DNA of 32,328 nt from sequence record SRR2962707_3356. One strand, 5' to 3'. Below, in pieces: positions 8,253 through 16,340 of this stretch. The notes beneath the pieces were generated by a model. That model searched no databases. It was not told the DNA's origin and worked only from the letters and a program-made list of their open reading frames with translations. A program made the translations under genes and the position numbers. How positions within the stretch are numbered: position 1 is the first letter of the stretch; every line of letters starts with the position of its first letter.

Positions 8253-9179
8253 TTATTTGCCCAGACACCAGCGCATGATCGCTTTCTGCGCGTGTAGCCG
8301 GTTTTCCGCCTCATCAAAAATCACCGATTGCGGACCATCCATGACTTCGGACGTCACTTCTTCGCCGCGGTGCGCGGGCAGGCAATGCATGAACAACGCA
8401 TCGTCTTTCGCATGGCTCATAAGCTCTGCGTTGACCTGATACGCACGTAGCATGTTGTGGCGCCGTTCCCGGGCCGATTGTGCGTCATGCATCGAGACCC
8501 AAGTGTCGGCCACAACCAAATCAGCACCTTGAACTGCTTTCACCGGATCCCGCTCGATATTGACGGAGACACCTGCGTTACGTGCCAACCCAACGAATTC
8601 CATTTCAGGATCTAATTGCACTGGCCCTGTAAATGTCAGGTCAAAGCCAAATTGGCCGGCAGCGTGAAGGAACGAGGCACAGACGTTGTTGCCATCCCCC
8701 GTCCAGACAACTTTCTTACCGGCAATGGGGCCTCGGTGCTCTTCATAGGTCAAAATATCCGCCATGATCTGGCACGGGTGCGTCCGGTCCGTTAGGCCGT
8801 TGATCACTGGCACAGACGCATATTCCGCCATCTCGGTCAGAACAGACTCGTCAAAGGTACGGATCATAATCATGTCGACATAGCGGCTTAGAACGCGGGC
8901 CGTATCTGCGATAGTCTCTCCATGTCCCAACTGCATGTCATTACCTGACAGAACCATGGTTTGACCGCCCATTTGACGCACGCCAACATCGAAAGACACG
9001 CGCGTCCGCGTCGACGGTTTTTCAAAGATCAACGCAACCATGTGGTTGGCCAAAGCTTGATCCGCGTCTGGCGTCGCCTTGGGCAAGCCATTGCGCGCGT
9101 CTTTTATGCTGCGCGCCTGATCGATGATGCCACGAAGGGCGGCTTTGTCTGTCGTATGAATATCAAGAAAATGGTTCAT
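8253..9179 (-). CDS. argF: Ornithine carbamoyltransferase
   Basis: [40 protein letters not shown]. Confidence 0.97.
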
Positions 9180-9227: not shown

Positions 9228-9716
9228 TCAAGGTTGAAAAGTCATGACAAGTACGGGATCGCCGTCTTCGCATGCTGTGATGTCTCTCGCACAGAACCCT
9301 GCTTTTTCGTAGCAGGAGATCGCCCGAGTGTTTTTCGGATCAGGGTCGACAAGGACAGTGCCGTATTCCCTGTGTAGTTCAAAAGCGCGCTGCTTCAGAT
9401 AGCCTTGCGCATGTCCTTGCCCCAGAAAGTCCGGATCCCCCAGAAAGGTATCAAGGGCCCGGGCGTTTGGGGGGTAGTTTGTATATTGTGGCGCGTCCCA
9501 ATGATGTGCCGGATAGTCCTGTACATAGGCGAAAGGGTGTTCCTTGAGGGTGACCATCCGCATGTCCGTTGGACCTTTTCCCATGTCCTCTTCTATCAAT
9601 TGGATTTCTGCATCAGGTGCGCCCCACCATCCCCCGATGTGAGGTTGCGCCAACCAATGGCGCAACAGCGGGAAATCCCCGCGGGTCACAGGGCGAAACC
9701 CATAGTTAACCGGCAT
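9228..9716 (-). CDS. GNAT N-acetyltransferase, AAC(6')-Ib/Acetyltransf_8-like
   Basis: WLAQPHIGGWWG, ALDTFLGDPDFLGQGHA, VDPDPKNTRAISCYEKAGF; ATG 9716 overlaps the argD end by 11 nt. Confidence 0.85.
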   Translation of the reverse strand: MPVNYGFRPVTRGDFPLLRHWLAQPHIGGWWGAPDAEIQLIEEDMGKGPTDMRMVTLKEHPFAYVQDYPAHHWDAPQYTNYPPNARALDTFLGDPDFLGQGHAQGYLKQRAFELHREYGTVLVDPDPKNTRAISCYEKAGFCARDITACEDGDPVLVMTFQP

Positions 9717-10887
9717 TGGCCTCGACCTGTGTGGCCGCTTTATCCAAGCGGGCAATGGCTTCTGAGACCTCATCGTCCGAGATATTCAATGGTGGCAGCA
9801 ACCGAACAACATTGTCCGCCGCTGGAATCGTGATGACCTGATTGTCGTACCCGGCTTGTACAACGTCCATATTGGTCGCCTTGCACTTAATACCAATCAT
9901 AAGGCCCGAGCCCCGTACGCTTTCAAAAACATCGGGATGGGCGGCGATCAACCCTTCTAGCTTTTGACGCAACAGGCCCGATGTCCGGCTGACGCCGTCC
10001 AGAAAGGCAGGGTCAGACACCCGATCCATAACCGCGTTGCCCACAGCACAGCCCAACGGGTTTCCGCCATATGTTGTGCCATGTGTCCCAGCGACCATGC
10101 CCAGCGCAGCCTCTTCTGTGGCCAAAACGGCCCCTAAGGGAAACCCGCCGCCAATACCTTTGGCGACCATCATGATGTCTGGCGTTACACCTGCCCATTC
10201 ATGCGCGAACAATTTACCGGTCCGGCCCACACCGCACTGAACCTCATCGAGAATAAGCAAAATGCCCTTTTTATCGCACAAGTCCCGAAGACCTTTCAGG
10301 CATTGTTCCGGTAAGACGTTAATACCGCCCTCGCCCTGAATGGGTTCTATTAGGATCGCCCCTGTATTATCGTCAATGGCTGCCGTCAGGGCGTCATGAT
10401 CCCCCCAGTCAACCTGCTTGAATCCAGGGAGCAAGGGGCCAAACCCCTTAACCATCTTTTCGCTGCCGGACGCCGCAATTGCCGCAGAGGACCGCCCGTG
10501 GAAAGAGCCGGAAAACGCAATAATGTCTGTCTTTTCCGGCTGGCCTTTTTCGTACCAGTATTTGCGCGCCATTTTGACCGCCAATTCACAGGCTTCTGTG
10601 CCTGAATTGGTGAAAAACACGGTATCAGCAAACGAAGTGTCCACCAGTTTTTGGGCCAAGGCTTCTTGCTGTGGAATCTCGTAGAGGTTGGAAACATGCC
10701 ACAACGCATTCGCTTGCGTGGTCAGCGCAGCAACCAAATCGGGGTTGGCATGCCCCAATACATTAACCGCGATTCCGGCACCCAGATCTAAAAAACGTCG
10801 ACCATCCGCCTCGATCAGCCAAGTGCCTTCGCCTTTAACAAAGTGCAGTGGTGCACGAATATAAGTCGGCAGAACGGATGGGATCAT
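9706..10887 (-). CDS. argD: Acetylornithine aminotransferase (class III PLP)
   Basis: GIAVNVLGH, FTNSGTEA, SFHGRS, DEVQCGVGRTG, AKGIGGGFP, HGTTYGGNP; upstream of argF. Confidence 0.95.
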   Translation of the reverse strand: MIPSVLPTYIRAPLHFVKGEGTWLIEADGRRFLDLGAGIAVNVLGHANPDLVAALTTQANALWHVSNLYEIPQQEALAQKLVDTSFADTVFFTNSGTEACELAVKMARKYWYEKGQPEKTDIIAFSGSFHGRSSAAIAASGSEKMVKGFGPLLPGFKQVDWGDHDALTAAIDDNTGAILIEPIQGEGGINVLPEQCLKGLRDLCDKKGILLILDEVQCGVGRTGKLFAHEWAGVTPDIMMVAKGIGGGFPLGAVLATEEAALGMVAGTHGTTYGGNPLGCAVGNAVMDRVSDPAFLDGVSRTSGLLRQKLEGLIAAHPDVFESVRGSGLMIGIKCKATNMDVVQAGYDNQVITIPAADNVVRLLPPLNISDDEVSEAIARLDKAATQVEANAG

Positions 10888-11007
10888 GGGTTTACCCTCA
10901 TTAAAGAAGCCCGATAGGTGCCAAGGGCACAGGGGCAAGTCAAGTTTTGATGGAAGTTTCAGACAGAAAGAGACACATCACGCCGGTAAAGGCGCGGGAA
11001 CAAGAGC

Positions 11008-11040
11008 TTACGCTCGTCGGATATGTGTCGCTTTGATCAT
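11008..11040 (-). CDS. Putative Arg-sensing leader peptide MIKATHIRRA of the argD-GNAT-argF operon
   Basis: ATG ATC AAA GCG ACA CAT ATC CGA CGA GCG TAA; tandem CGA codons; ATG coincides with predicted +1 of TTGCGA-16-TAAATG. Confidence 0.55.
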   Translation of the reverse strand: MIKATHIRRA

Positions 11041-11046
11041 GCGGCC

Positions 11047-11074
11047 CATTTACAGCAATCCGACAATTTCGCAA
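11047..11074 (-). promoter_or_regulatory. Putative sigma70 promoter for the argD leader
   Basis: TTGCGA (11074-11069), 16 nt, TAAATG (11052-11047), 6 nt, ATG. Confidence 0.5.
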
Positions 11075-11238
11075 GAGTATTTTACGCCAAGACCCAATGG
11101 CACATTACAATACCCGTTCTATCCAAGTAATTGAGCAACATATCTCAAAACACCTTTTGACTGTCTGTGACGTCGGCATTTCCTGCAGATCAATCCAGAA
11201 AGTCCAAAGGACATCATTTCGCTGCGAAAGGCTCATTT

Positions 11239-11706
11239 ATGGCGCAAGACGATATATACTCAGGCCTCACCCAGCTGGGCGCGGCAACCAAAGCTCCGCA
11301 AAGTCCGGAAGAAGCGGTGCTTGAAAAGGTGCCTAATCCACAGACAGGTGTGCGATATTGCGTGCGATTTACAGCACCGGAATTTACGTCACTTTGCCCG
11401 ATGACCGGGCAGCCCGACTTTGCACATTTGGTGATTGACTATATCCCTAAGGATTTCCTGGTTGAAAGCAAGTCCCTGAAGTTGTTTCTGTTTTCCTTCC
11501 GAAACCACGGGGCCTTTCACGAAGATTGCACAGTGTCCATCGCCCGCCGACTGGTCGATTTGCTGGATCCGGAATGGTTACGCATTGGTGGATACTGGTA
11601 TCCGCGCGGTGGCATCCCCATCGACGTTTTCTATCAGACAGGTAGCGCCCCAGCGGACGTTTGGATCCCGGCCCAAGATGTGCCAACCTACCGAGGCCGC
11701 GGATAA
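11239..11706 (+). CDS. queF: preQ1 synthase (7-cyano-7-deazaguanine reductase), type I
   Basis: [43 protein letters not shown]. Confidence 0.96.
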
Positions 11707-16289: not shown

Positions 16290-16340
16290 ATGATGTATGC
16301 CTTCGCCATTATCATGCGAATTACTGGCCCGGCGCTCTGA
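16290..16340 (+). CDS. Putative Ile-sensing leader peptide MMYAFAIIMRITGPAL of ileS
   Basis: 16-codon ORF with ATT ATC ATG CGA ATT core; starts at predicted +1; stop inside hairpin 16328-16356. Confidence 0.55.
   Translation: MMYAFAIIMRITGPAL

Follow-up and report, generated by a model that had tools for sequence, protein, structure and literature searches.

The classical leader-peptide attenuators are trpL, hisL, leuL, thrL, pheL and ilvL, while the standard example of regulation by a repressor is arginine synthesis. The locus studied here, in a 32,328-nucleotide stretch of record SRR2962707_3356 (the window), carries a short arginine-codon upstream ORF (uORF) before argD. Like the classical attenuators, this argD leader has tandem cognate codons near the 3′ end of a short uORF and lies upstream of biosynthetic genes. 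It differs from them in its specificity for arginine, its leaderless start and the presence of a second promoter downstream, and it has no conserved pair of intrinsic terminator and antiterminator. ArgR performs the same regulatory task, but as a DNA-binding repressor. The available part of one study describes ArgR as absent outside the gammaproteobacteria (PMC5343134), and our searches, run on the genomes of relatives, gave no match to its family PF01316 in 151 genomes from the order, while 8 of 14 controls scored above the cut-off.

The uORF-dependent Rho attenuators, including tnaC, speFL, mgtL, corL and cruR in the accessible text of a recent review (PMC12360218), share with the argD leader a design in which the fate of the ribosome on the uORF gates Rho on a C-rich leader, as is predicted here for argD. 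Their signals are free Trp, ornithine, Mg or Cu, and the genes they regulate serve catabolism or transport. The argD leader, by contrast, seems to monitor charged tRNA-Arg by way of its CGA codons, lacks a conserved arrest peptide and governs biosynthetic genes. speFL is also tied to arginine/ornithine metabolism, and the same portion of the review names no case from arginine biosynthesis. Three traits of this class recur at argD, namely an excess of C over G after the uORF (79/80 loci), no conserved intrinsic terminator, and a rho gene, present in all five relatives' genomes searched.

The mycobacterial polycysteine leaderless ORFs ('Cys ribulon', 10.1101/834739, in the part available) also combine a leaderless uORF with a run of cognate codons, and they exert amino-acid-responsive operon control, possibly at several loci, as proposed for the argD leader. 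They concern a different amino acid and phylum, and their output is the release of a sequestered Shine-Dalgarno (SD) sequence, which our folding does not support for argD. In the same order as our locus, a cysS leader (uORFC-8-2) has been predicted that is likewise a short uORF with cognate tandem codons (PMC8632094, available sections). The argD leader is closest to the uORF-gated Rho attenuators and the leaderless poly-Cys ORFs: it has the uORF, the tandem codons and the leaderless start, and shows neither a conserved classical terminator, nor a conserved arrest peptide, nor, in predicted folds, SD release. An earlier, sequence-only reading of this DNA knew of no characterised example for the operon, and our literature search likewise found no description of the leader, older comparative attenuation surveys lying outside its coverage. 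argD was not found in the supplements of PMC8632094 or PMC8625941 as far as these were accessible, and term searches limited to the main texts of PMC4833913 and PMC2965389 gave no match.

A conserved leaderless ORF upstream of argD

All the features described in the sequence-only reading were found where it had placed them in the window (Table 1). These include the promoter P1, with its TTGCGA-16 nt-TAAATG-6 nt-ATG geometry, the 10-codon ORF MIKATHIRRA, whose stop codon TAA occupies 11010-11008 on the minus strand, and the CGCGCC/GGCGUG stem after the stop. The ATG within TAAATG (11049) shares the frame of the leader ORF, and the ORF may start further upstream in the window strain. Two claims held in part. 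The GNRA hairpin over the stop is present, but the loop recurs in only 2/120 leaders and is strain-specific, and we rejected it as a conserved feature. The tract before the argD SD is pyrimidine-rich as proposed, but it is about 80 rather than 90 nt long and more U-rich than C-rich (T28 C23 A14 G13 over 10901-10978). Rfam covariance models gave no match near the gathering score in window 10700-11400. Downstream, argF follows argD in 80/80 related loci, in 79 of them within 135 nt of the argD match. The GNAT gene between argD and argF in the window is distantly AAC(6′)-like, far below the cut-offs of those models, and occurs in 1/80 related loci.

Table 1. Positions of the argD leader, its promoters and the downstream genes in the window
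Feature	Position	Strand	Basis or remark
P1 -35 element TTGCGA	11069..11074	-	sequence; T-rich signal across relatives
P1 -10 element TAAATG, without -7T	11047..11052	-	sequence; T/A enrichment across relatives
Leader ORF MIKATHIRRA	11008..11040	-	leaderless; +1 predicted on A of ATG, position 11040
Control codons CGA CGA	11014..11019	-	Arg pair near 3′ end of leader ORF
Hairpin GAGC-GUAA-GCUC over last Arg codon and stop	11004..11015	-	predicted fold
Post-stop GC stem CGCGCC/GGCGUG	10979..10996	-	predicted fold; candidate pause hairpin
Closing helix, uORF 5′ part 11029-11023 pairing with 10978-10972	10972..11029	-	predicted fold
Pyrimidine-rich, G-poor tract	10944..10978	-	candidate Rho loading region; A-run at end before P2 -35
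P2, TTGACT-17 nt-CACCTA	10915..10943	-	predicted +1 at about 10908
Hairpin across P2 with short U tail UUCUUUAA	10901..10936	-	-11.7 kcal/mol; weak terminator-like in window strain
argD Shine-Dalgarno GAGG	10896..10899	-	sequence
argD, acetylornithine transaminase	9706..10887	-	NF002325 at 625 bits (cut-off 372); TIGR00707 also above its cut-off
GNAT acetyltransferase	9228..9716	-	PF13523; between argD and argF; likely start overlaps argD stop
argF, ornithine carbamoyltransferase	8253..9179	-	NF001986 and TIGR00658 over cut-off

The relatives of the window ArgD at 72-85% identity are Rhodobacterales, and 80 related argD loci together with the window made up the conservation set of 81. An ORF with tandem Arg codons (ATG start, 6-25 codons, no more than 300 nt from argD) precedes argD in 79/81 loci, the two exceptions both being Nioella; dinucleotide shuffles of the 81 loci gave a mean of 13 and a maximum of 25, and the reverse strand gave 14. 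The enrichment is confined to Arg, found in tandem in 79 of the 81 loci with Ala next at 15. The sequence-only reading had set beforehand, as a refuting result, that the Arg codons are not conserved in relatives; an ORF with in-frame CGA-CGN was found in 79/81 loci, against a shuffle mean of 2.0 (maximum 7) and 2/81 on the reverse strand. The leader micro-ORF is genuine and conserved.

In genomes drawn evenly from the order, the leader was found in 46 of 60. These are 46 of the 55 with ArgD of at least 67% identity, the remaining nine lacking it as the two Nioella loci do, and none of the five deep-branching genomes. In the rest of the class outside the order, where 40 of 82 argD matches were examined, none had the layout of the leader, with one locus (L115) ambiguous; some uORF with an Arg pair precedes argD in 6 of these 40, mostly as the tail of an upstream gene. 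No leader of the argD type was found in 30 regions upstream of argG, argJ, argB, argH, carA and argS from five genomes. In four loci (L048, L053, L158, L160), a stretch resembling a palindromic repeat replaces the leader and P2 is kept. In the window the leader is divergent from queF (11239-11706, plus strand), which neighbours it in 0/80 related loci, so the leader is retained while the upstream neighbour varies.

An SD-like motif precedes the uORF in 1/80 loci, as compared with 77/80 for argD. In the 52 loci with a single ATG, the base before the ATG is always a pyrimidine, and the upstream region shows a T-rich signal at -36 to -34 and T/A enrichment at -13 to -11. Published R. sphaeroides tables, in the parts available, place argD at 609588 and a transcription start site (TSS) at 609429 (PMC12976309, PMC7703639). 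The 21-base promoter string matched four contigs, two of which (L082, L083) were unrelated and dropped. In the other two, L081 and L084, the last base of the string is the A of the ATG with which MTCRTRALSDRRRRF begins, and the distance from this ATG to the argD start is exactly 159 nt; loci of this type are not the sequenced R. sphaeroides strain itself, the contigs differing at 8-9 places in 601. TSS 609429 was called again by an independent cappable-seq dataset, and TACGAC, the counterpart of the -10 element, precedes it. Because two published start-site maps place +1 on its ATG, the uORF is leaderless in R. sphaeroides, where the proposed +1 is borne out, and it is presumably leaderless in the window strain as well. 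A strict E. coli-type promoter scan found no site at the window leader because the -10 element has no -7T, a base absent from most R. sphaeroides promoters according to the accessible text of PMC7703639.

A second leaderless-looking micro-ORF, MMYAFAIIMRITGPAL, lies before ileS in the window (16290-16340, plus strand). It contains an ATT-ATC Ile pair and sits behind TTTACC-17-TATAAG-6, and is a candidate isoleucine leader for isoleucyl-tRNA synthetase.

In-frame arginine codons and a second promoter

CGA makes up 167 of the 349 Arg codons of the leaders (48%) against 112 of 1223 in argD (9%), and 51 of 440 in 14 ORFs of the window. The finding that CGA comes first in 116/120 leaders was not counted as evidence since that set was selected on CGA. 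For the frame test, the ATG was picked on promoter score alone; a score cut and the removal of duplicates kept 118 of 142 regions, of which 3 have no CGACG motif, leaving 115. In 111 of these 115 loci the chosen ATG and the first CGACG share a frame, where chance would give one in three; the two lie 21, 24, 27, 30 or 33 nt apart, and a stop follows the Arg motif within 3-10 codons in every locus. The Arg run is locked in frame with the ATG and is probably read as codons. The possibility that CGACG is instead bound by a protein or a small RNA, the ORF being incidental or non-functional, is suggested by the recurrence of the same bases in the leader and in the tail of murI (see below). The fixed frame and the constant proximity of the stop argue against it and make it highly improbable.

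The leader peptides are 9-18 residues long and variable outside the Arg run. They carry Ile at residue 2 in 54/120 and Leu or Ile before the run in 67/120, a bias that might point to nascent-peptide arrest sensing free arginine or ornithine, as in SpeFL or TnaC. The residue-2 bias can be ascribed to the start helix described below, the peptides are otherwise unrelated, and what is conserved is a synonymous choice, CGA, so we consider arrest very unlikely. In a pattern search of five relatives' genomes, tRNA-Arg of the ACG and CCG types was found and no UCG type; the ACG type is present in one copy in four of the five and was missed in the fifth, which marks the search as imperfect. The view that CGA is a slowly decoded Arg codon agrees with data from Salmonella, where, in the available part of the report, a his-leader assay places CGA pairs with the slowest (PMC4046918).

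The sequence-only reading overlooked a second promoter, P2, within the pyrimidine tract (TTGACT 10943-10938, 17 nt, CACCTA 10920-10915). Its TTGAC is located 54-82 nt upstream of argD, after an A-rich run, in 81/81 loci. Of 120 distinct leaders, 97 have -12C and 89 have -11A in the -10 element. In R. sphaeroides, TSS 609568 lies 20 nt before argD and follows TTGACT-17-CACCCC by 7 nt (PMC8407463, accessible part); a third, weak-looking TSS is called at 609536. By eye, P2 was rejected as a sigma-54 site, the GG not being kept. Most likely, P2 was the ancestral promoter of argD and the leader arose upstream of it, because P2 is kept in all nine close genomes without the leader and matches TTGAC-GATACT outside the order (15/37 exact). 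The sequence-only reading had also set beforehand, as a refuting result, that the TSS maps downstream of the uORF. This did not occur, a TSS being mapped on the uORF ATG, but the second TSS does lie downstream, so the leader governs only part of the argD-argF output.

The arrangement raises the question of whether the leader acts through P2, with the ribosome setting how many P1 polymerases reach it, and these either occluding or clearing P2 or meeting a P2-bound polymerase as a pause block. The -35 element is invariant although the -10 element is poor (-7T in 22/120 leaders against 29/37 outside the order), which would suit such a role. The genomes of the order that lack the leader share the poor -10, however, so that weakening is not tied to the leader, and a leader-driven weakening of P2 is unsupported; in addition, the spacing from stop to TTGAC varies from 28 to 121 nt. 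We give this explanation little probability.

Predicted folding and fate of the transcript

The window leader folds at z = -3.65 (0/200 shuffles as stable), and across 80 loci the mean z is -2.12 against -0.33 for an upstream control. The stop overlaps a hairpin loop in 56/120 leaders, and stems like the post-stop GC stem were seen in the 13 folds inspected. A covarying helix is predicted to join the start-codon region with RNA past the stop: the start-proximal 4-mer, counted from the G of AUG, has an exact complement 3-45 nt past the stop in 73/99 leaders of the seven start classes with at least five members (out of 120), as compared with 77/594 for the words of the other classes. The corresponding counts in a control region are 7/99 and 62/594. 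Four classes show the excess separately, with 47/51, 7/8, 6/9 and 5/9; kinship inflates the p-value of the comparison. The window is one of four exceptions in the GATC class, its helix being shifted 3′, and when the 5′ helix was examined more coarsely, with 16-nt duplexes, the signal was modest (mean z -0.72).

From these features we infer an arginine response and termination at the leader. Very probably, the leader heads the longer argD-argF transcript as a sensor through which ribosomes read the arginine supply. In the proposed mechanism, the P1 transcript starts on the uORF AUG and a ribosome would load on it without an SD. After 7-11 codons it would reach the Arg run that begins with CGA, a codon decoded through wobble by the ACG(ICG) tRNA. 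When arginine is plentiful, the ribosome would complete the uORF and depart, the start-codon region would then pair with post-stop RNA and block reloading, and Rho could load on the bare C-rich leader and halt transcription before argD. When arginine is short, the ribosome would stall on the CGA codons and cover the first 45-50 nt, possibly leaving too little free RNA for Rho before the argD SD emerges, so that argD-argF would be transcribed. P2 would supply a basal, leader-independent argD transcript. The full model, in which stalling on CGA prevents Rho-dependent termination, has in our estimate a slightly better than even chance.

Rut sites favour little structure, and the well-structured leader therefore counts against the involvement of Rho. 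In addition, the C-rich tract stays exposed when a ribosome stalls, and protection must then come from timing or coupling. Rho dependence is consistent with the absence of a conserved terminator and with the base bias, C exceeding G between the stop and TTGAC in 79/80 loci (C/G 1.77 against 0.92 upstream of P1). The median distance from the first CGA to argD is 140 nt, and Rut length is given as 60-90 nt in the accessible text of PMC12360218. Unpaired C showed no clear difference between free and stalled folds (p = 0.06, 80 loci). The RNA runs gave contigs of flat depth, yielding no start, end or level.

Termination might instead be intrinsic, as in classical attenuation, at the post-stop stem or at the hairpin across P2, which can form only in P1 transcripts. 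The window hairpin, with UUCUUUAA just upstream of the SD, resembles a weak terminator, and under a loose rule terminator-like hairpins occur in 29/80 loci, the window included, a count that also weighs against Rho. Under the same rule 51/80 loci have none, the positions differ, and the tails are broken by C and G. Across the 80 loci, the region of the P2 hairpin has a z of about -1.4 with a U tail that is not conserved, no conserved U-tailed terminator was found, and the predicted folds contain no conserved antiterminator or competing switch. Intrinsic termination is thus distinctly unlikely.

The output of the sensor might also be mRNA stability, with a stalled ribosome at the 5′ end shielding the P1 transcript from 5′-end-dependent decay, in which RppH and RNase E or J take part. 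The leaderless geometry places the stalled ribosome on the 5′ end itself, and this output would suit the short murI-argC gaps, which leave little room for Rho. A buried 5′ end usually stabilises RNA, however, so the helix formed after ribosome departure would act in the wrong direction, and the C>G bias is left unexplained. We regard protection from decay as unlikely.

The sequence-only reading had offered control of argD translation by ribosome stalling as the other outcome. The mycobacterial poly-Cys leaderless ORFs, with the same leaderless, cognate-codon design, would provide a precedent for a stalled ribosome that frees the argD SD (10.1101/834739, in part). Folding does not support SD sequestration: accessibility of the argD SD is 0.29 in free and 0.28 in stalled folds (p = 0.33, 80 loci), no change is seen at argC either (p = 0.18, 33 loci), and the argD SD lies 82-202 nt past the uORF stop. 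Translational attenuation is accordingly as improbable as an action through P2.

A candidate second site at murI-argC

The murI gene ends in an Arg pair about nine codons before its stop. This pair begins with CGA in 33/39 genomes with argC no more than 230 nt downstream, as compared with 1/19 elsewhere, and in 33/37 against 1/13 when only genomes keeping the pair are considered; in the body of murI, the counts of CGA are 17/579 with argC adjacent and 6/290 elsewhere. The 58 genomes (L195-L197, L223-L288) had murI called by family match, mostly near the cut-off. On a MurI tree, from which 4 of the 58 rows were excluded as partial proteins, both traits change seven times, nearly always together. 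Three independent pairs fall on well-supported branches (seven on all), which is not significant because there are too few independent lineages.

The murI-argC gaps are 24-131 nt long with a C/G of 1.20. An R. sphaeroides TSS lies 144 nt before argC and may fall inside murI; the hexamers matching it follow from the MurI protein sequence, and TTG, at 3/39 against 1/19, does not track argC adjacency. The usual argC family gave no hit at threshold in two relatives (G003, G005) and in 7/61 sampled genomes; all that the two relatives carry is a weaker homologue at another place, below the cut-off and probably of the other ArgC type. Three Alphaproteobacteria outside the order (L089, L090, L091) have, upstream of argD, a permease-like gene with RRGY as its last residues. 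Among 20 such tails, CGA-CGA occurs in three of the four that have the Arg pair, possibly the same in-gene signal or the origin of the leader.

We tentatively propose, at somewhat less than an even chance, a repressor-free arginine regulon in Rhodobacterales that operates through CGA pairs, with the micro-ORF serving argD-argF and the murI tail sensing for argC. If so, the tail of murI, a housekeeping gene for glutamate racemase, would take on a leader-peptide role solely through the choice of synonymous codons. No description of the murI-argC signal was found in the literature searched, in which subscription journals were thinly covered. If the signal is real, the ends of ordinary genes can harbour regulatory sensors written in synonymous codons, at places that leader scans do not search.

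For a large order of marine and phototrophic Alphaproteobacteria in which ArgR was not found, the argD leader offers a concrete account of how arginine synthesis may be regulated. If correct, the proposed mechanism would make arginine a further amino acid that biosynthetic genes sense through cognate-codon leaders, by a leaderless, probably Rho-type design with a start-blocking helix. As both start sites are already mapped in R. sphaeroides, the proposal is directly testable there.
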